From the UHGV virus genome UHGV-0372619: DNA of 10,101 nucleotides; one strand, 5' to 3'. Of the stretch, positions 24 to 9,900 are shown piece after piece. A program made the position numbers and the translations under genes. Numbering within the stretch: position 1 is the stretch's first letter; every line of letters starts with the position of its first letter. The stretch is from a virus. The notes below the pieces were generated by a model that did no database searches, was not told the DNA's origin, and worked only from the letters and a program-made list of their open reading frames with translations.

Positions 24-349
24 AGACCTTCCGCTGGAAAGTGAAACCCGGTATGGATGTGGCTTCGGTCCCTTCTGTAAGAAAGGTGCGCTTTGGTGAT
101 GGCTATTCTCAGCGAGCGCCTGCCGGGCTGAATGCCAACCTGAAAACGTACAGCGTGACGCTTTCTGTCCCCCGTGAGGAGGCCACGGTACTGGAGTCGT
201 TTCTGGAAGAGCACGGGGGCTGGAAATCCTTTCTGTGGACGCCGCCTTATGAGTGGCGGCAGATAAAGGTGACCTGCGCAAAATGGTCGTCGCGGGTCAG
301 TATGCTGCGTGTTGAGTTCAGCGCAGAGTTTGAACAGGTGGTGAACTGA
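20..349 (+). CDS. M: Tail tip assembly protein M (gpM), 109 aa
   Basis: ORF 20..349 translates to MKTFRWKVKPGMDVASVPSVRKVRFGDGYSQRAP..., which I recognise as essentially identical to lambda gpM, with the same length and the same position immediately upstream of L. The stop overlaps the L start (TGATG). Confidence 0.9.
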   Translation: MKTFRWKVKPGMDVASVPSVRKVRFGDGYSQRAPAGLNANLKTYSVTLSVPREEATVLESFLEEHGGWKSFLWTPPYEWRQIKVTCAKWSSRVSMLRVEFSAEFEQVVN

Positions 350-1047
350 TGCAGAATATCCGACAGGAAACACTGAATGAATGCACCCGTGCGGAGCAGT
401 CTGCCAGCGTGGTGCTCTGGGAAATCGATCTGACAGAGGTCGGCGGAGATCGTTATTTCTTCTGTAATGAGCAGAACGAAAAAGGTGAACCAGTCACCTG
501 GCAGGGGCGGCAGTATCAGGCCTATCCCATTCAGGGAAGTGGATTTGAGATGAACGGCAAAGGAGCCAGTGCAAGGCCAACGCTGAAAGTCTCTAATCTG
601 CACGGCATGGTCACCGGGATGGCGGAAGACCTGCAGAGTCTGGTCGGAGGAACGGTGGTCAGGCGTAAGGTTTACGCCTGTTTTCTGGATGCGGTGAACT
701 TCGTCAACGGAAATAGCGATGCCGATCCGGAGCAGGAGGTGATCAGCCGCTGGCGCATCGAGCAGTGCAGCGAACTGAGCGCGGTGAGCGCCTCTTTTGT
801 ACTGTCCACGCCGACGGAAACGGATGGCGCTGTTTTTCCGGGACGTATCATGCTGGCCAACACCTGCACCTGGACCTATCGCGGTGACGAGTGCGGTTAT
901 AGCGGTCCGGCTGTCGCGGATGAATATGACCAGCCGACGTCCGATATCACGAAAGATAAATGCAGTAAATGCCTGAGTGGCTGTAAGTTTCGCAATAATG
1001 TCGGCAACTTTGGCGGCTTCCTTTCCATTAACAAACTTTCGCAGTAA
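349..1047 (+). CDS. L: Minor tail protein L (gpL), 232 aa, with C-terminal cysteine cluster
   Basis: ORF 349..1047 (MQNIRQETLNECTRAEQSASVVLWEIDLTEVGG...) is near-identical to lambda gpL as I recall it, with the same 232-aa length. The C-terminal Cys residues (CTWTYRGDECGYSG...KDKCSKCLSGCKF) are consistent with the reported iron-sulfur cluster of gpL. Start is coupled to the M stop. Confidence 0.9.
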   Translation: MQNIRQETLNECTRAEQSASVVLWEIDLTEVGGDRYFFCNEQNEKGEPVTWQGRQYQAYPIQGSGFEMNGKGASARPTLKVSNLHGMVTGMAEDLQSLVGGTVVRRKVYACFLDAVNFVNGNSDADPEQEVISRWRIEQCSELSAVSASFVLSTPTETDGAVFPGRIMLANTCTWTYRGDECGYSGPAVADEYDQPTSDITKDKCSKCLSGCKFRNNVGNFGGFLSINKLSQ

Positions 1048-1051
1048 TCCC

Positions 1052-1795
1052 ATGACACAGACAGAATCAGCGATTCTGGCGCACGCCCGGCGATGTGCGC
1101 CAGCGGAGTCGTGTGGCTTCGTGGTGAGAACGCCGAAGGGGGAAAGATATTTTCCCTGCGTGAATATCTCCGGTGAGCCGGAGGCGTATTTCCGGATGTC
1201 GCCGGAGGACTGGCTGCGGGCAGAGATGCAGGGTGAGATTGTGGCGCTGGTCCACAGCCACCCCGGTGGTCTGCCCTGGCTGAGTGAGGCTGACAGGCGG
1301 CTGCAGGTGCAGAGCGATTTGCCGTGGTGGCTGGTCTGCCGGGGGGCGATTTACAAGTTCCGCTGTGTGCCACATCTTACCGGGCGGCGCTTTGAGCACG
1401 GGGTGACGGACTGTTACACGCTGTTCCGGGATGCTTACCATCTGGCGGGGATTGAGATGCCGGATTTTCATCGCGAGGATGACTGGTGGCGTAACGGTCA
1501 GAATCTCTATCTGGATAATCTGGAGGCCACAGGGCTGTATCAGGTGCCGTTGTCATCAGCACAACCGGGCGATGTGCTGCTGTGCTGTTTTGGTTCATCG
1601 GTGCCGAATCATGCCGCCATTTACTGTGGTGACGGCGAGCTGCTGCACCATATTCCTGAACAACTGAGCAAACGAGAGAGGTATACCGACAAATGGCAGC
1701 GACGCACACACTCCCTCTGGCGTCACCGGGCATGGCACGCATCTGCCTTTACGGGGATTTACAACGATTTGGTCGCCGCATCGACCTTCGTGTGA
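1052..1795 (+). CDS. K: Tail assembly protein K (gpK), with N-terminal MPN/JAB (JAMM) metalloprotease-like domain and C-terminal NlpC/P60-like domain; longest ORF 247 aa, with an alternative internal start at 1196 giving 199 aa
   Basis: Frame open from ATG 1052 (MTQTESAILAHARRCAPAESCGF...), 5 nt after the L stop. A JAMM-like motif HSHPGGLPWLSEAD (HxHx7SxxD) sits at about 1256-1300, with a conserved upstream Glu (PAESCGF) that lies only in the longer form. The C-terminal Cys/His-containing region (DCYTLF ... HHIPE) fits an NlpC/P60 fold. Matches lambda gpK as I recall it; the lambda reference annotation (199 aa) would correspond to ATG 1196 (MSPEDWL...). Confidence 0.85.
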   Translation: MTQTESAILAHARRCAPAESCGFVVRTPKGERYFPCVNISGEPEAYFRMSPEDWLRAEMQGEIVALVHSHPGGLPWLSEADRRLQVQSDLPWWLVCRGAIYKFRCVPHLTGRRFEHGVTDCYTLFRDAYHLAGIEMPDFHREDDWWRNGQNLYLDNLEATGLYQVPLSSAQPGDVLLCCFGSSVPNHAAIYCGDGELLHHIPEQLSKRERYTDKWQRRTHSLWRHRAWHASAFTGIYNDLVAASTFV

Positions 1796-2334
1796 AAACG
1801 GGGGCTGAAGCCATCCGGGCGCTGGCCACGCAGCTTCCGGCGTTTCGCCAGAAACTGAATGAGGGCTGGTATCAGGTGCGCATTTCCGGGCGTGATGCAG
1901 GCGAAAACGAATTATCTGCCCGTCTTAATGAGCCGCTGGCAAATGGTGCCGTGATCCACATCGTACCGCGTCTGGCGGGTGCCAAAAGTGGCGGTATTTT
2001 TCAGGCAGTGCTGGGTGCGGCGCTAATTGCTACGGCAATCTGGATGCCGGGGCTTAGTATTGTTGCAAGTAATCTCATGTTCTCTCTTGGGGCAGGTATG
2101 GTTTTAGGCGGTGTTGCGCAGATGCTGGCACCGAAAGCCAAAACGCCTAAAGTGTCAGCCACTGATAACGGTAAGCAAAATACCTATTTTTCCTCATTGG
2201 ATAACATGGTTGCCCAGGGCAATGTCCTGCCTGTTCTGTACGGTGAAATGCGCGTGGGGTCACGTGTGGCATCTCAGGAGATCAGCACGGCAGATGAAGG
2301 GGATGGTGGTCAGGTTGTGGTAATTGGGCGGTAA
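1693..2334 (+). CDS. I: Tail assembly protein I (gpI), 213 aa, with ubiquitin-like N-terminal region and Gly/Ala-rich hydrophobic C-terminal half
   Basis: ORF 1693..2334 (MAATHTLPLASPGMARICLYGDLQRFGRRIDLRVKTGAEAIRALATQ...) matches lambda gpI as I recall it. It overlaps the 3' end of K by 103 nt in a different frame. The C-terminal ...NMVAQGNVLPVLYGEMRVGSRV...GGQVVVIGR is conserved; the hydrophobic Gly/Ala-rich centre differs somewhat from lambda (lambda I is 223 aa by my recollection). Confidence 0.85.
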   Translation: MAATHTLPLASPGMARICLYGDLQRFGRRIDLRVKTGAEAIRALATQLPAFRQKLNEGWYQVRISGRDAGENELSARLNEPLANGAVIHIVPRLAGAKSGGIFQAVLGAALIATAIWMPGLSIVASNLMFSLGAGMVLGGVAQMLAPKAKTPKVSATDNGKQNTYFSSLDNMVAQGNVLPVLYGEMRVGSRVASQEISTADEGDGGQVVVIGR

Positions 2335-2811: not shown

Positions 2812-5800
2812 ATGGGTAAAGGTAGCAGTAAGGGGCATACCCCGCGCGAAGCGAAGGACAACCTGAAGTCCACGCAGCTGCTGAGTGTGATCGATGCCAT
2901 CAGCGAAGGGCCGGTTGAAGGTCCGGTGGATGGATTAAAAAGCGTGCTGCTGAACAGTACGCCGGTGCTGGACAGTGAGGGGAATACCAATATCTCCGGC
3001 GTCACGGTGGTGTTCCGGGCAGGTGAGCAGGAGCAGACACCGCCTGAGGGCTTTGAATCCTCCGGCTCCGAGACGGTGCTGGGTACGGAAGTGAAGTACG
3101 ACACGCCGATTACCCGGACCATCACGTCTGCAAACATCGACCGTCTGCGCTTTACCTTCGGTGTGCAGGCACTGGTGGAAACCACCTCAAAGGGGGACCG
3201 GAATCCGTCGGAAGTCCGCCTGCTGGTTCAGATACAACGTAACGGTGGCTGGGTGACGGAAAAAGACATCACCATTAAGGGCAAAACCACGTCGCAGTAT
3301 CTGGCCTCGGTGGTGGTGGATAACCTGCCGCCGCGCCCGTTTAATATCCGGATGCGCAGGATGACGCCGGACAGCACCACAGACCAGCTGCAGAACAAAA
3401 CGCTCTGGTCGTCATACACCGAAATCATCGATGTGAAACAGTGCTACCCGAACACGGTACTGGTCGGCGTGCAGGTGGACTCGGAGCAGTTCGGCAGCCA
3501 GCAGGTGAGCCGTAATTATCATCTGCGCGGGCGTATTCTGCAGGTGCCGTCGAACTATAACCCGCAGACGCGGCAATACAGCGGTATCTGGGACGGAACG
3601 TTTAAGCCAGCATACAGCAATAACATGGCCTGGTGTCTGTGGGATATGCTGACCCATCCGCGCTACGGCATGGGGAAACGTCTTGGTGCGGCGGATGTGG
3701 ATAAATGGGCGCTGTATGTCATCGGCCAGTACTGCGACCAGTCGGTGCCGGACGGCTTTGGCGGCACGGAGCCGCGCATCACCTGTAATGCCTGGCTGAC
3801 CACGCAGCGCAAGGCGTGGGATGTGCTCAGTGATTTCTGCTCGGCGATGCGCTGTATGCCGGTATGGAACGGGCAGACGCTGACGTTCGTGCAGGACCGA
3901 CCATCAGATAAGGTGTGGACCTATAACCGCAGTAATGTGGTGATGCCGGATGATGGCGCGCCGTTCCGCTACAGCTTCAGCGCCCTGAAGGACCGCCATA
4001 ATGCCGTTGAGGTGAACTGGATTGACCCGAACAACGGCTGGGAGACGGCGACAGAGCTTGTGGAGGATACGCAGGCCATTGCCCGTTACGGTCGTAACGT
4101 CACGAAGATGGATGCTTTTGGCTGTACCAGCCGGGGGCAGGCACACCGCGCCGGGCTGTGGCTGATTAAAACAGAACTGCTGGAAACGCAGACCGTGGAC
4201 TTCAGCGTGGGCGCAGAAGGGCTTCGCCATGTGCCGGGCGATGTCATTGAAATCTGTGATGATGACTATGCCGGTATCAGCATCGGCGGGCGCGTGCTGG
4301 CGGTAAACAGCCAGACCCGGACGCTGACGCTCGACCGTGAAATCACGCTGCCATCCTCCGGTACCACGCTGATAAGCCTGGTTGACGGAAGTGGTAATCC
4401 GGTCAGCGTGGAGGTTCAGTCCGTCACCGACGGACTTAAGGTGAAAGTGAACCGGGTTCCTGACGGCGTTGCAGAATACAGTGTGTGGGGGCTGAAGTTG
4501 CCGACGTTGCGTCAGCGCCTGTTCCGCTGTGTGAGTATCCGTGATAACGATGACGGCACGTATGCCATCACCGCCGTGCAGCATGTACCGGAAAAAGAAG
4601 CCATCGTGGATAACGGGGCGCACTTTGACGGCGGCCAGAGCGGCACGGTGAATGGTGTCACGCCGCCAGCGGTGCAGCACCTGACCGCCGAAGTCACCGC
4701 AGACAGCGGGGAATATCAGGTGCTGGCGCGCTGGGACACGCCGAAGGTGGTGAAGGGCGTGAGCTTCCTGCTCCGTCTGACCGTAACAGCGGATGACGGC
4801 AGTGAGCGGCTGGTCAGCACGGCCCGGACGACGGAAACCACATACCGCTTCACGCAACTGGCGCTGGGAAACTACAGGCTGACAGTCCGGGCGGCAAATG
4901 CCTGGGGGCAGCAGGGCGATCCGGCATCGGTATCGTTCCGGATTGCCGCACCGGCAGCACCGTCGCGGATTGAGCTGACGCCGGGCTATTTTCAGATAAC
5001 CGCAACGCCGCATCTTGCCGTTTATGATCCGACGGTACAGTTTGAGTTCTGGTTCTCGGAAAAGCGGATTGCGGATATCAGGCAGGTTGAAACCACAGCC
5101 CGCTATCTTGGCACGGCGCTGTACTGGATAGCCGCCAGTATCAATATCAAACCGGGCCATGATTATTATTTTTATATCCGTAGTGTGAACACTGTTGGCA
5201 AATCGGCATTTGTGGAGGCTGTCGGTCGGGCGAGCGATGATGCGGAAGGTTACCTGGATTTTTTCAAAGGCAAGATAACCGAATCCCATCTCGGCAAGGA
5301 GCTGCTGGAAAAAGTCGAGCTGACGGAGGATAACGCCAGCAGACTGGAGGAGTTTTCGAAAGAGTGGAAGGACGCCAACGATAAGTGGAATGCCATGTGG
5401 GCTGTCAAAATTGAGCAGACCAAAGACGGCAAACATTATGTCGCGGGTATTGGCCTCAGCATGGAGGACACGGAGGAAGGCAAACTGAGTCAGTTTCTGG
5501 TTGCCGCTAACCGTATCGCATTTATTGACCCGGCAAACGGGAATGAAACGCCGATGTTTGTGGCGCAGGGCAATCAGATATTCATGAACGACGTGTTCCT
5601 GAAGCGCCTGACGGCTCCCACCATTACCAGTGGTGGCAGTCCTCCGGTATTTTCCCTGACATCAGACGGAAAGCTGACCGCTAAAAATGCGGATATCAGT
5701 GGCAGTGTGAATGCGAACGCCGGGACGCTCAACAATGTCACGGTAAATGAAAACTGTACGATTAAGGGCATGCTGGAGGCGACTCAGGTCAGAGGTGACT

Positions 5801-6225
5801 TCGTTAAAGCTGTATCCAAATCATTTCCGAAACAGGCTGGTACGTGGGGTAACACGGAAACACCAAACGGGACGGTTACAGTCACCATCAGCGATGATCA
5901 TAACTTTGACCGTCAAATCATTATTCCGCCCATTATCTTTAACGGAATAGCGTATAGCGATCCGGGAAGTGGTAATAACCCGGGAGGTACAAGATACACG
6001 GGTTATGGTTTTGAAGTTCGCAAAAACGGTGTATTAATCGCATCCAGAGAAACTAAAGGGGCCATTCCCGGTAGCTACAGTGCGGTTATTGATATGCCGA
6101 GTGGCAGGGGAAGCGTCACTCTGGAGTTTAAGGTTTTCCATAAAGGCAATCAGTGGGCAGGTAATATCACCGACTGTACGGTGATTGTGACCAAAAAAGC
6201 CGCTTCCGGCATCAGTATTCGTTGA
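2812..6225 (+). CDS. J: Tail tip host-specificity protein J (central tail fibre), 1137 aa, with divergent C-terminal receptor-binding domain
   Basis: ORF 2812..6225 preceded by a GAGGA Shine-Dalgarno. The N-terminal [34 protein letters not shown]... and most of the length match lambda gpJ (1132 aa) as I recall it. The last ~150 aa (from about ...[34 protein letters not shown]... to ...[10 protein letters not shown]) diverge from the lambda C-terminus I remember. Confidence 0.92.
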
Positions 6226-6294: not shown

Positions 6295-6894
6295 ATGCGT
6301 AAACTTTATGCCGCCATTTTGTCCGCAGCCATTTGTCTGGCCGTATCCGGTGCGCCTGCATGGGCATCTGAACATCAGTCCACGCTGAGCGCGGGGTATC
6401 TTCATGCCTCGACGAACGTTCCCGGCAGCGATGATCTTAACGGGATTAACGTGAAATACCGTTATGAGTTTACGGATACGCTGGGGCTGGTGACGTCATT
6501 CAGCTATGCAGGAGACAAGAATCGCCAGCTTACCCGTTACAGCGATACCCGCTGGCATGAAGATTCCGTGCGTAACCGCTGGTTCAGCGTGATGGTGGGG
6601 CCGTCTGTGCGCGTGAATGAATGGTTCAGCGCGTATGCGATGGCGGGTATGGCTTACAGCCGTGTGTCGACTTTCTCCGGAGATTATCTCCGCGTAACTG
6701 ACAACAAGGGGAAAACGCACGACGTGCTGACCGGAAGTGATGACGGTCGCCACAGCAACACGTCTCTGGCGTGGGGAGCTGGCGTGCAGTTTAACCCGAC
6801 CGAATCCGTGGCCATTGATATTGCTTATGAAGGCTCCGGCAGTGGCGACTGGCGCACTGACGGTTTCATCGTGGGTGTCGGTTATAAATTCTGA
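6295..6894 (+). CDS. lom: Outer-membrane beta-barrel protein Lom (Ail/Lom/PagC family), 199 aa
   Basis: ORF 6295..6894. Signal peptide [24 protein letters not shown], followed by alternating aromatic/hydrophobic beta-strand patterns and a C-terminal ...[10 protein letters not shown] ending in Phe, typical of 8-stranded outer-membrane barrels. Same position (between J and stf) and high similarity to lambda Lom as I recall it. Confidence 0.88.
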
Positions 6895-6958: not shown

Positions 6959-9900
6959 ATGGCAGTAAAGATTTCAGGTGTACTGAAAGACGGCACAGGA
7001 AAACCGGTACAGAACTGCACAATCCAGCTGAAAGCAAAACGTAACAGCACCACGGTGGTGGTGAACACGCTGGCCTCAGAAAATCCGGATGAAGCCGGGC
7101 GTTACAGCATGGACGTTGAGTACGGTCAGTACAGCGTTATTCTGTTGGTGGAGGGATTCCCGCCGTCACATGCCGGGACCATCACCGTGTATGAAGATTC
7201 TCAACCCGGTACGCTGAATGATTTTCTCGGTGCCATGACGGAGGATGATGCCCGTCCGGAGGCATTGCGACGTTTTGAACTGATGGTGGAAGAGGTGGCG
7301 CGTAACGCGTCCGCAGTGGCACAGAACACGGCAGCCGCGAAGAAGTCAGCCGGCGATGCCGGCACATCTGCCCGTGAGGCGGCAACCCATGCGACTGATG
7401 CTGCAGGCTCAGCACGCGCAGCCAGCACGTCAGCCGGACAGGCCGCTTCGTCGGCTCAGTCAGCGTCTTCCAGCGCAGGAACGGCATCAACAAAGGCCAC
7501 TGAAGCGGAAAAAAGTGCTGCCGCTGCAGAGTCCTCAAAAAGCGCGGCAGCTACCAGTGCCAGTGCCGCGAAAACGTCAGAAACGAATGCTGCAGCGTCA
7601 CAACAATCAGCAGCCACTTCTGCATCCACCGCGACTACGAAAGCGTCAGAAGCTGCCACCTCAGCCCGGGATGCGTCGGCTTCAAAAGAGGCGGCAAAAT
7701 CATCAGAAACGAACGCATCCTCGAGCGCCAGCAGCGCAGCTTCCTCGGCAACGGCGGCAGCAAATTCCGCGAAGGCGGCAAAAACGTCCGAGACGAACGC
7801 CAGGTCTTCTGAGACGGCAGCGGGACAGAGCGCCTCAGCTGCGGCAGGCTCAAAAACAGCGGCTGCGTCGTCTGCCAGTGCCGCGTCAACAAGTGCCGGG
7901 CAGGCCTCAGCCAGTGCCATCGCCGCCGGAAAATCGGCAGAAAGCGCCGCATCATCCGCTTCAACAGCCACAACGAAGGCTGGCGAAGCCACTGAACAGG
8001 CCAGCGCAGCAGCGAGGTCAGCTTCCGCAGCGAAGACATCCGAAACGAACGCGAAAGCGTCGGAAACCAGCGCAGAATCCTCAAAAACGGCTGCCGCATC
8101 GTCCGCCAGTTCGGCGGCGTCATCGGCCTCATCGGCGTCTGCTTCAAAAGATGAGGCGACCAGACAGGCGTCAGCAGCGAAGGGCAGCGCCACGACGGCA
8201 TCCACGAAGGCAACAGAGGCTGCTGGCAGTGCGACGGCGGCAGCACAGAGCAAAAGTACGGCAGAATCCGCAGCAACGCGCGCTGAGACAGCGGCAAAAC
8301 GGGCAGAGGATATTGCATCCGCCGTGGCGCTTGAGGATGCGAGCACGACGAAAAAGGGGATAGTCCAGCTCAGTAGTGCAACCAACAGCACATCTGAAAC
8401 GCTTGCCGCGACACCGAAGGCAGTTAAAGCAGCGAATGACAATGCGAATGGCAGGGTACCATCTAACCGAAAAGTTAACGGGAAAGCACTGACTGCGGAT
8501 ATAACATTAACACCGAAAGATATTGGCACTTTAAATTCAGTAACGATCTCTTTCTCTGGCGGGGCAGGGTGGTTCAAACTGGCAACGGTTACCATGCCAC
8601 AAGCGAGTTCCATCGTTTACATCGCATTGATTGGTGGCGCTGGTTACAACGTCGGCTCCCCACAGCAGGCAGGCATTTCAGAACTGGTTCTACGAGCAGG
8701 CAATGGAAACCCCAAAGGGATTACCGGAGCTTTGTGGAAGCGTACAGCCGTCGGATTAACGAATTTCGCCTGGATCAACACATCCGGCGATACATATGAT
8801 ATTTACGTTGAGATTGGCAATTATGCGACGAGTGTAAATATCCATTGGGATTGTACTACAAATGCGTCAGTTTCTATTTATACCTCGCCAACATATTCAG
8901 CGAGTAAGCCTTCCAGCGTTACCGATGGTGTTGTTTATACGATGTATAGCTCACATCAGAAACCTACACCATCAGATATTGGAGCGCTGCCAACGACTGG
9001 AGGGACTATTTCAGGTCCGTTGTCTGTTACTGATGGGATCACCGGGGCACTGAAGGGGAACGCCGATACCGCGACGAAACTTGCGGCAGCCCCAAAAATT
9101 AACGGTGTTAAGTTTGATGGCTCGGCGGATATTAACCTCACGCCGGAAAATATTGGTGCATTTGCCCGACGTTCGACGGGAGCTTATGCGGATTCGGATG
9201 GAGCCGTTCCCTGGAATGCCGAATCAGGCGCTTACAATGTCACCCGCTCTGGCGACAGCTATATTCTGGTTAACTTCTATACCGGAGTCGGAAGTTGCCG
9301 GACCTTGCAGATGAAGGCGCATTACAGAAATGGTGGTCTGTTCTACCGTTCTTCAAGAGACGGTTATGGTTTTGAGGAAGACTGGGCAGAAGTTTATACC
9401 TCGAAAAATCTTCCACCAGAAAGCTACCCAGTAGGCGCACCAATCCCGTGGCCATCAGATACCGTTCCGTCTGGTTATGCCCTGATGCAGGGGCAGACTT
9501 TTGACAAATCTGCCTACCCAAAACTTGCAGCCGCTTATCCGTCAGGCGTGATCCCTGATATGCGTGGCTGGACGATTAAGGGCAAACCTGCCAGTGGTCG
9601 AGCCGTATTATCTCAGGAACAGGACGGCATTAAATCGCACACCCACAGCGCCAGCGCATCCAGTACGGATTTGGGGACGAAAAACACATCGTCGTTTGAT
9701 TACGGAACCAAATCCACGAATAACACCGGGGCGCATACCCATAGTATTAGCGGGACTGCAAATAGTGCCGGTGCGCACCAACACAAGAGTTCCGGTGCAT
9801 TTGGTGGCACGAACACGAGCATTTTCCCTAATGGTTATACCGCGATTTCAAATCTAAGCGCGGGGATTATGAGCACAACAAGCGGTAGTGGCCAGACTCG

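Follow-up and report, generated by a model that had tools for sequence, protein, structure and literature searches.

Gene K of a lambdoid prophage very probably starts directly after gene L, and a missing base probably accounts for the shorter K of the lambda reference

In the window analysed here, a 10,101-nucleotide stretch of the viral genome UHGV-0372619, two in-frame ATG codons can each be read as the start of tail gene K, raising the question of which of them opens the gene and why the lambda reference uses the second. The upstream neighbour, encoding minor tail protein L (349..1047, 232 aa; this and all other features lie on the + strand) and identified from the open reading frame listing and a Pfam Phage_tail_L match of 331 bits, stops at TAA 1045-1047. 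After a four-nucleotide spacer, TCCC, a frame opens at ATG 1052 and continues for 247 codons to TGA 1793-1795, just as the initial annotation had proposed (1052..1795). It had also correctly identified the second ATG, codon 49 of the same frame (1196..1198), as the counterpart of the lambda reference start: it aligns with lambda position 14276 and would give a product of 199 residues. Starting K there leaves 148 nt (1048-1195) as an apparent spacer behind the L stop, of the same length as in J02459 and NC_001416.

Both position and sequence identify this gene as the orthologue of lambda gpK (J02459 AAA96551 / NP_040598, 199 aa). It lies between L and I in an M-L-K-I-J tail-tip module, as judged from the Pfam identities of the flanking genes, which is the position of K in lambda; 240 of its 247 residues are identical to K of resequenced lambda, and it matches phrog_30 with 545 bits. 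The window nevertheless represents a lambdoid prophage rather than lambda itself, with ~93% nucleotide identity to mEp332, a J of 1137 aa (1132 in lambda), an I of 213 aa (223 in lambda) and, unlike lambda, an extra open reading frame between I and J. Gene I (1693..2334), recognized by Pfam as Lambda_tail_I and encoding the ubiquitin-like tail assembly protein I, shares its first 103 nt with the 3' end of K, read in a different frame; over these shared nucleotides the I frame has a dN/dS of 0.10 and the K frame one of 2.0.

The question of the K start thus comes down to whether the 48-codon segment omitted by the 199-residue annotation (1052..1195) is coding. Openness of such a stretch is by itself weak evidence, expected by chance in ~10% of cases. 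Across 85 unique sequences of 1055-1195, by comparison, the K frame gives a dN/dS of 0.21 versus 2.4 and 2.6 for the two alternative frames, and variable sites are distributed 13/8/31 over the three codon positions; such frame-specific purifying selection, as the substitution pattern indicates, is stronger evidence than the open frame alone. The 48-residue peptide on its own matches PHROGs with E values of 1e-22 to 1e-31, PDB profile alignments to 2kks and 2kcq begin at profile positions 2-4, and the Pfam, PHROG and PDB profile matches all span residues 1-48. For comparative purposes, K loci were gathered with a single K protein for viral contigs and with an 11-sequence alignment for genome contigs; 136 of the 145 fetched loci carry an intact K frame. 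The 80 viral loci are all 96-98% identical, supplying data on frame intactness and substitution but little diversity.

More distant relatives extend the picture beyond this group. In a homologue search against 1.84 billion representatives, query residues 1-10 aligned with residues 1-15 of full-length homologues (35-50% identity, 228-260 aa). An alignment of 87 homologues at 33-58% identity shows G22 and N38 invariant and P17, E19, C21 and F47 conserved in at least 90%, all of these upstream of Met49, so that conservation reaches past the internal Met down to 33% identity. At position 49 the consensus residue is Ile; apart from a close group from E. coli, Citrobacter and Edwardsiella, most homologues carry Ile there in place of Met and so cannot start at this codon. 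What was found is thus the opposite of a universal internal-Met start behind a non-conserved upstream region. Consistently, the best-placed ATG is found 64-72 codons 5' of the HSHP motif in 14 loci (from Citrobacter, Xenorhabdus, Providencia, Chania, Gallibacterium, Oceanisphaera, Testudinibacter, Aggregatibacter, Glaesserella, Edwardsiella and a Pasteurellaceae isolate). In the nine of these loci in which the end of the upstream frame (L) could be located, the ATG follows it by 0-11 nt or overlaps it by 1 nt, and a purine-rich, Shine-Dalgarno-like stretch often precedes these homologue ATGs.

The same alignments bear on starts further 5' within L. The frame of the window is open back to 977, and translation from GTG 977 or ATG 998 would yield proteins of 272 or 265 aa whose extension carries VAVSFAIMSATLAASFPLTNFRSNP. 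However, the lambda L-K spacer is 5 nt versus 4 here, the corresponding in-frame stretch upstream of K in lambda spans 7 codons without a start codon, homologue N-termini align to residues 1-10, and Pfam and PDB matches never reach upstream of 1052; we consider such an extended K extremely improbable. Some records place the start downstream of 1052, giving products of 211, 233 or 239 aa; these choices are unsupported, since conservation already begins at residues 1-10.

The contribution of the disputed segment is clearest in the predicted N-terminal domain. Pfam assigns residues 3-98 (1058..1345) of the 247-residue form to Prok-JAB (PF14464), in agreement with Foldseek, at 51.9 bits, where the gathering score is 25, and with coverage of profile positions 3-103 of 114; the 199-residue form scores only 22.8 bits, below threshold, and covers positions 63-103. 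As defined by Ambroggio et al. (PMC300881), who also described the role of its Glu, the JAMM motif joins a general-base Glu to a zinc-binding part. In K the former would be Glu19 of PAESCGF (codon 1106..1108), which is conserved and, in the PDB profile search, aligned with the Glu of solved MPN/JAMM proteins; the latter corresponds to H68-S69-H70-x7-S78-x2-D81 (1253..1294), with H68, H70 and D81 invariant and S69 and S78 conserved in at least 90% of the 87 homologues. The complete E-x(n)-H-S/T-H-x7-S-x2-D motif is thus present, and E19 is unique to the long form, as the initial annotation had argued in pointing to the loss of the N-terminal JAB part from the 199-residue protein.

Structural modelling leads to the same reading. 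The AlphaFold model of the 247-residue K has a pLDDT of 97.1, with blocks over residues 1-50 at 97-98, and assigns residues 3-36 to the JAMM core; the 48-codon segment encodes its helix 3-15 together with strands 21-27 and 30-36. Foldseek returns a probability of 1.00 to 5ld9/5lda, CSN5, Rpn11 and AMSH, and the PDB profile search matches K to 2kks, 2kcq and 5lda. With Pyrococcus furiosus JAMM1 (5LD9/5LDA), which binds the ubiquitin-like SAMP2, K shares the same fold at an rmsd of 2.5-2.6 Å over 106-109 aligned columns, and it has the complete E...HSH...S..D motif in common with the stand-alone JAMM peptidases (PfJAMM1, AfJAMM 1R5X, DSY2949 2KKS, 2KCQ), although these lack its fusion to an NlpC/P60 domain. 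Against the haloarchaeal desampylase model NF041370, K scores 28.5 bits, far under the equivalog cut-off of 130, and the NCBIfam scan of K gave sub-threshold matches only. By profile score, motif and fold, the N-terminal domain of K is a predicted metallopeptidase of the JAMM/MPN+ type, to which the first 48 residues would contribute helix 1, strands 1 and 2 and the catalytic Glu19.

Against this background we weighed the reading of the lambda reference, in which K begins at ATG 1196 only and 1048-1195 is untranslated spacer. The reference annotation with its many copies and the Shine-Dalgarno-like site ahead of 1196 speak for it, but it would leave the frame-specific purifying selection on 1055-1195 and the conserved catalytic and core residues of 1052-1195 without a coding role, push the Pfam JAB match below threshold, and deny a start to the distant homologues that lack Met49, while the reference annotation itself is accounted for by a missing base, as described below. 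We judge this reading very improbable.

Downstream of the JAMM domain, residues 111-224 (1382..1723) form an NlpC/P60 domain (PF00877) according to Pfam, conservation and fold, with 49.3 bits against a threshold of 23 and a match across all of profile positions 1-105 of 105. Cys121 (codon 1412-1414) is the candidate catalytic residue together with His187 and His199; among the 87 homologues both His residues are invariant and Cys121 is conserved in at least 90%. The PDB profile search and Foldseek match the fold of this domain to MepS/Spr and LytE. With its Pfam score and Cys/His/His residues, it is a predicted peptidase of the C40 family, in keeping with the view of the initial annotation that the 247-residue form holds complete JAMM-type and NlpC/P60-like domains. 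The resulting protein would join the JAMM site completed by H68-S-H70...S78..D81 to an NlpC/P60 site formed by C121, H187 and H199. MepS/Spr, LytE and CwlO share the fold and the Cys-His-His positions, but K, unlike these enzymes, has neither a signal peptide nor a cell-wall-binding module; as it is likely to serve assembly in the cytoplasm and is missing from virions, a role on peptidoglycan is doubtful.

Why, then, is lambda K annotated with 199 residues? In J02459 and NC_001416, L occupies 13429-14127 and K 14276-14875 (199 aa), with 148 nt in between; the upstream ATG at 14133 is out of frame with K, and the K frame is interrupted by a TGA 21 nt before 14276. Comparison with the window identifies a single G at 1186..1186, within GGAGGCGTATTTCC, that is absent from these records, corresponding to 14266_14267insG. 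It is this missing G that puts ATG 14133 out of frame and leads to the 199-residue annotation. Among the loci scanned, the sequence state GGAGGC-TATTTCC is confined to J02459, NC_001416 and OR974322, and OR474059 is also in the reference state, with a gapless 601-nt match; GGAGGCGTATTTCC is found in 60 lambda-type loci, among them OM418626, PV340536, KT232076, LC730321 and DE3. A whole-genome comparison of MW057783 (lambda cI857 ind1 Sam7) with J02459 shows exactly six differing sites, 14266_14267insG among them, and LC730321 shares both 138delG and 14266_14267insG. The genotype sequenced by Sanger was reportedly cI857, ind1, Sam7 as well, and NEB, in its documentation of DNA of this genotype, reportedly gives the same six differences.

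Could the missing G instead be a real allele of the J02459 stock, with K either 199 residues long or made by a +1/-1 ribosomal frameshift? Programmed frameshifting is used by lambda G-T, and OR974322 and OR474059 show the reference state. The annotation of OR974322, however, is an exact copy of that in RefSeq, and OR474059 bears an UNVERIFIED flag, so that both look reference-derived; MW057783, of the genotype cI857, ind1, Sam7 and with only six differences from J02459, has the G, as do all other independent lambdas and the 60 lambda-type loci. A true allele therefore has, in our estimate, next to no probability. From these sequence comparisons, the 199-residue K of the lambda reference is best read as an artefact of one G missing from the 1982 sequence, and the 247-residue frame as intact in real lambda DNA, as it is in the window, given that resequenced lambdas carry the G. 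The lambda reference does use the internal ATG, as first noted, but not by a free choice of start, as the initial annotation implied: with the true start out of frame, the internal Met and its GGAGG would have been left as the first plausible start, and the GGAGG probably explains why 14276 was chosen.

This GGAGG (1180..1184), Shine-Dalgarno-like but inside the K coding region and 11 nt before ATG 1196, deserves consideration in its own right. As part of CGGAGGC it would form a duplex of -9.5 kcal/mol with the 16S 3' end, it is annotated as a ribosome-binding site in OM418626, and by the same duplex measure nothing comparable precedes ATG 1052. Lacking its own Shine-Dalgarno sequence, K would be translated from ATG 1052, 4 nt past the L stop, by initiation most likely coupled to L termination, yielding the 247-residue two-peptidase protein. 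A hairpin predicted around 1168-1208 (-31.6 kcal/mol, z = -2.2) encloses the GGAGG; its stability barely exceeds that of shuffled sequences, and it is not claimed here as a functional element.

A strong GGAGG ahead of 1196 and no detectable Shine-Dalgarno sequence at 1052 together leave room for an additional internal product, that is, a 199-residue, NlpC/P60-only isoform made from ATG 1196 alongside the 247-residue protein. Nested in-frame genes such as C/Nu3 and S107/S105 of lambda provide a model for this arrangement. Every close E. coli lambdoid relative examined keeps both GGAGG and ATG, and in some phages the K-like protein, TAPK, has an NlpC/P60 domain only (Iyer et al., PMC1779556). 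Set against the strength of CGGAGGC are a spacing of 11 nt to the ATG, longer than optimal, the location of the site within the predicted hairpin, and the conserved Glu-Pro-Glu codons, which also explain the GGAGG. Moreover, the predominance of Ile at position 49 outside the close enterobacterial group means that the family as a whole does not share an internal start, and the 199-residue form would, in the structure model, hold half a JAB domain that could not fold. We regard dual products as unlikely, and slightly more so a version in which the hairpin hides the internal site and so tunes the ratio of the 247-residue enzyme to an internally initiated 199-residue K. If a 199-residue product were made from 1180-1198, the old ‘K’ would coexist with the true one, the second product having NlpC/P60 but no functional JAB, and K would be a nested two-product gene like C/Nu3.

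Conservation, the Ile at position 49, the placement of homologue ATGs and the structure model all favour the start at 1052 that the initial annotation had advanced. We consider it very probable that K starts there, encodes 247 residues, was truncated in the lambda reference by an artefact and may act on the product of the adjacent gene I. This last element draws on Iyer, Burroughs and Aravind (2006, PMC1779556), who predicted that K processes the ubiquitin-like gpI encoded beside this JAB plus NlpC/P60 peptidase, an architecture described in 2003-2006. The TAPK/TAPI pair of that work has exactly the architecture and neighbourhood of the window, with no architectural difference. Here Lambda_tail_I (PF06805) covers residues 14-97 of I, and the ubiquitin-like domain ends in ...VPRLAGAKSGG, followed by a hydrophobic, Gly-rich linker and a C-terminal domain; on sequence grounds the K-I pair fits the description of a phage ubiquitin-like plus JAB tail-assembly pair, in which gpI would by analogy be a substrate or a partner of K.

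In the mechanism we envisage, the JAB domain, possibly helped by NlpC/P60, would cleave the ubiquitin-like N-terminal domain off gpI near ...SGG, and the C-terminal part of gpI would then become the tail-tip plug. The presumed substrate is a linear ubiquitin-like fusion, rather than an isopeptide conjugate as for the stand-alone JAMM enzymes. In lambda, mass spectrometry finds no K in virions and gpI is resolved only at residues 135-223 (PMC10721106), and we infer from the cryo-EM papers and Iyer et al. (2006) that K is a non-virion assembly enzyme; the unseen N-terminal part of gpI could equally be disordered, not removed. The initial annotation had gone further and likened the system to ubiquitin-type conjugation and deconjugation. 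The pairing of gpI with a JAB-containing K indeed stands as described, but the analogy is overstated: the Pfam scan of M, L, K, I, 2395-2745, J, lom and 7356-8363, which stopped at 8363, found no E1- or E2-like match (2395-2745 and 7356-8363 had no Pfam match), and the phage clusters list TAPI, TAPK and TAPJ only (Iyer et al. 2006, PMC1779556). A TAPK/TAPI pair without E1 or E2 is not a conjugation system.

For the window, the practical outcome is to annotate K at 1052-1795, which reveals no new biology. The 247-residue K is a real, correct and already practised annotation, found in PV340536, MW057783, phage 21 (OL657228) and RefSeq E. coli prophages, with the same 744-nt coding sequence in RefSeq E. 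coli 4/1-1; the lambda reference and some recent papers still have 199 residues. The shorter coding sequence has been copied even into records whose own sequence has the G, such as OM418626 and DE3, and UniProt P03729 is presumably still 199 aa. A 2020 structural review gives ‘gpK, 199 residues’ with one peptidase domain recognised (PMC7291167), a 2025 study of lambda mutation rates mapped to J02459/NC_001416, and Feiss et al. (2022) speak of ‘9 differences’ relative to the Sanger sequence with none itemised; no paper found in our literature search states the K start correction or 14266_14267insG. Given the wide use of the phage record J02459/NC_001416, the truncated K propagates with it. A K cloned, modelled or mutated from the reference would lack the catalytic Glu of the JAB domain along with its helix 1 and two of its core strands, the very parts that are needed to test the processing of gpI by K.

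The domain, conservation, selection and structure results for the first 48 codons bear out the observation and main reading of the initial annotation, which placed the start of K at 1052 and not at an internal Met: the correct annotation of the gene in the window is 1052-1795. After the L stop TAA (1045-1047), four nucleotides (TCCC) lead into ATG 1052, from which an open frame of 247 codons reaches 1795; ATG 1196 is codon 49. Because of this 4-nt spacer, and because no SD is detectable at 1052 by pairing with the 16S 3' end, K translation is probably coupled to L termination. The lambda reference does place its K start at the internal ATG, 148 nt after L: in J02459 and its RefSeq copy NC_001416, the annotated L spans 13429-14127 and the 199-aa K spans 14276-14875, and lambda 14276 aligns with window 1196.

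Among 85 unique 247-codon sequences, the K frame has a dN/dS of 0.21 over codons 2-48, against 2.4 and 2.6 for the two alternative frames, with 13/8/31 variable sites at codon positions 1/2/3. The 48-residue peptide by itself matches four PHROG families (E 1e-22 to 1e-31). In a HMMER scan of 1.84 billion cluster representatives (1,758 matches at E <= 1e-10), query residues 1-10 of K align with residues 1-15 of full-length homologues (35-50% identity, 228-260 aa). The homologue alignment proposed as a check shows conservation upstream of Met49: across 87 homologues with 33-58% identity, G22 and N38 are invariant, and conservation reaches 90% or more at P17, E19, C21 and F47. Position 49 itself has the consensus Ile and distant homologues mostly do not have Met49, so that most homologues from other genera cannot start there. 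We inspected gene starts in the nucleotide sequences of Citrobacter, Xenorhabdus, Providencia, Chania, Gallibacterium, Oceanisphaera, Testudinibacter, Aggregatibacter, Glaesserella, Edwardsiella and a Pasteurellaceae isolate. In these taxa the best-placed ATG of K lies 64-72 codons 5' of HSHP, often behind a purine-rich SD-like stretch, and begins 0-11 nt after the end of the upstream ORF or overlaps it by 1 nt (9/14 such loci with the end locatable).

The Pfam Prok-JAB profile matches residues 3-98 of the 247-aa form at 51.9 bits (gathering score 25). On the 199-aa form the match is confined to profile positions 63-103 and falls under the threshold at 22.8 bits, and the N-terminal part of the MPN/JAB domain is lost together with its Glu, as had been claimed; the NlpC/P60 match is the same in both. 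Since E19 lies within the first 48 residues, the complete motif E19...H68-S-H70-x7-S78-x2-D81 (JAMM motif as defined by Ambroggio et al., PMC300881) occurs in the long form only. In the model that AlphaFold2 gave from the alignment of 87 sequences (mean pLDDT 97.1), residues 3-36 supply a helix (3-15) and strands (21-27, 30-36) of the JAMM fold. The structures that Foldseek superposes are P. furiosus JAMM1 (5ld9/5lda, rmsd 2.5-2.6 A), CSN5, Rpn11 and AMSH for the N-terminal domain, and MepS/Spr and LytE for the C-terminal domain. In a PDB profile search the alignments to two MPN proteins, 2kks and 2kcq, begin at profile positions 2-4 and at the N-termini of these proteins, and the conserved Glu is matched.

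The discrepancy in K length is caused by a single-base omission in the 1982 reference; the start codon was not chosen freely. The upstream ATG of J02459/NC_001416, at 14133, is out of frame with K, only the first 45 of the 76 codons in its ORF match K, and an in-frame TGA lies 21 nt 5' of 14276; the reference reads GGAGGC-TATTTCC where the window reads GGAGGCGTATTTCC, with a G at 1186. This G (14266_14267insG) is present in five independent lambda-derived sequences, OM418626 (lambda imm434), PV340536 (lambda from MG1655), KT232076, LC730321 and EU078592 (DE3). Among the loci fetched for a wider scan, 60 lambda-type copies have it and only J02459, its RefSeq copy and OR974322 do not; OR474059 also lacks it, by a gapless 601-nt match to the reference. 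Both OR974322, whose annotation is identical to RefSeq, and OR474059, flagged UNVERIFIED, look reference-derived. MW057783, named 'Campylobacter phage CJLB-4' in GenBank, is a lambda genome whose S gene is interrupted, and it differs from J02459 over the whole genome by exactly six changes: 138delG, 14266_14267insG, 37589C>T, 37742C>T, 43082G>A and 45352G>A. Of these, 37589, 37742 and 45352 are the ind1, cI857 and Sam7 alleles of the strain sequenced by Sanger et al., and a commercial lambda DNA supplier reportedly lists the same six. LC730321 belongs to another lineage and also has 138delG and 14266_14267insG. The G in independent lambdas, in the 60 copies, in LC730321 and in MW057783 contradicts a genuine frameshift allele in lambda. 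With the G restored, lambda K is 247 aa long and identical to the window's protein at 240/247 positions.

A GGAGG located 11 nt 5' of the internal ATG forms a -9.5 kcal/mol duplex with the 16S 3' end; with no SD detectable at 1052, this explains why 14276 looked like a start in the frameshifted sequence. That the internal ATG gives an extra 199-aa isoform besides the 247-aa form is very improbable, since the SD-to-ATG spacing is long, a hairpin covers the site (z = -2.2) and Met49 is absent from distant homologues. The hairpin is predicted at 1168-1208, with CUCCGGUGAGCCGGAGG pairing with CCGGAUGUCGCCGGAG and enclosing both GGAGG and AUG 1196; its signal is marginal (76 nt, -31.6 kcal/mol, 4/200 shuffles folding as well) and may merely reflect repeated CCGGAG coding sequence. 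GTG 977, further upstream, is excluded as a start because the extension it would give is not conserved: the L-K spacers of lambda and the window are 1 nt apart in length.

The correction itself is little new and already practised, since several records and modern pipelines use the long form, and the biology dates from publications of 2003-2006. RefSeq E. coli genomes carry a 744-nt CDS, 'C40 family peptidase', 4 nt after L; PV340536, MW057783 and OL657228 (phage 21) annotate the 247-aa K, and the largest K clusters in a 5.8-billion-protein collection have this length. A 2003 list of JAMM proteins included lambda K, and the JAB plus NlpC/P60 architecture beside gpI, the ubiquitin-like tail assembly protein, was described in 2006 (PMC1779556). 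Annotation is inconsistent across records, with 199-, 211-, 233- and 239-aa versions also in existence, and OM418626 and DE3 annotate 199 aa despite the G in their own sequences. A 2020 review treated gpK as '199-residue' and found one peptidase domain only (PMC7291167), and Feiss et al. (2022) mentioned, but did not list, nine positions at which laboratory lambdas in common differ from the Sanger sequence (PMC9119081). No explicit statement of the K correction was found in the literature searched; because the reference record keeps the truncated protein, it is still useful housekeeping.

Several records showed further irregularities. In ON470618, the closest phage relative (partial genome), K is annotated as 199 aa although the ATG and 247-codon frame are intact, and L is split at locus 3050-3752 into CDSs 3050-3592 and 3555-3752, which implies a frameshift. 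In mEp332 (PV340541, locus 1253-1300) the K start region is in another frame, the annotated 233-aa K beginning MCASGVVRLRGK... as against ...RRCAPAESCGFVV..., which suggests a compensated indel pair or sequencing errors near the K 5' end. Relative to J02459, LC730321 has several substitutions at 20.6-22.4 kb and an extra C after 20832, where laboratory lambda has its known stf frameshift; the record therefore looks like an Ur-lambda-type stf+ phage. Lambda DNA also occurs as low-coverage contigs, often ~48.4-48.5 kb at ~1x, in assemblies labelled Neobacillus, Pseudoxanthomonas, Shewanella, Pseudomonas, Bradyrhizobium, Streptomyces and others; these, and MW057783 with its cI857, ind1 and Sam7 alleles, look like laboratory or control-DNA contamination.

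The window carries the tail-tip module of a lambdoid prophage, with M (20-349), L (349-1047), K, I (1693-2334), J (2812-6225) and a Lom/Ail gene (6295-6894). It is distinct from lambda itself, its top phage matches being the partial genome of vB_EcoS-813R6 at 98.5% identity and mEp332 at 93%, and the K region is found in 4,375/5,426 complete E. coli genomes. The I-J intergenic region (2335-2811) measures 477 nt versus 60 nt in lambda and contains a TTG-started ORF of 116 aa with no Pfam match (2395-2745), possibly an inserted moron; a 112-aa hypothetical protein is annotated in the same place in the closest E. coli genome. Downstream of lom, where lambda has stf/tfa, two long ORFs overlap on opposite strands, 7356-8363 (+; 335 aa, no Pfam match) and 7456-8613 (-; 385 aa).

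Related records give I at least three different starts: at ATG 1693 in the lambda reference and the window, overlapping K by 103 nt; at the equivalent of ATG 1732 in RefSeq E. coli, overlapping by 64 nt; and at the K stop (GTG 1792) in PV340536 and ON470618. The shorter versions would truncate the ubiquitin-like domain, because in the 1693 form the Pfam Lambda_tail_I domain starts at residue 14, all 85 unique sequences have ATG 1693, and within the overlap (1693-1795) the I frame has a dN/dS of 0.10 and the K frame one of 2.0. Of the proposal that gpI and K form a ubiquitin-type conjugation/deconjugation system, the pairing of a ubiquitin-like protein with a JAB peptidase stands (PMC1779556), but with no E1- or E2-like Pfam match among M, L, K, I, J, lom and the ORFs at 2395-2745 and 7356-8363, 'conjugation system' is the wrong description.

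Pfam, motif residues and Foldseek agree with the initial annotation that K is a two-domain protein; its JAMM and NlpC/P60 catalytic residues are intact, and its gene lies directly after L and overlaps I. gpK was undetected by virion mass spectrometry and unresolved in cryo-EM maps (PMC10721106, PMC12617516), and K is essential by classical genetics (table in PMC10695390); it would be an assembly enzyme and not a virion component. No experiment on gpI cleavage by K was found in the literature searched. In cryo-EM only gpI residues 135-223 are resolved, as a plug in the tail-tip lumen (PMC10721106), which is consistent with such cleavage, although an N-terminus that is merely disordered would account for it equally well. 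The ubiquitin-like N-terminal domain of gpI ends ...AGAKSGG, and the JAB domain of K most likely cleaves it off gpI.
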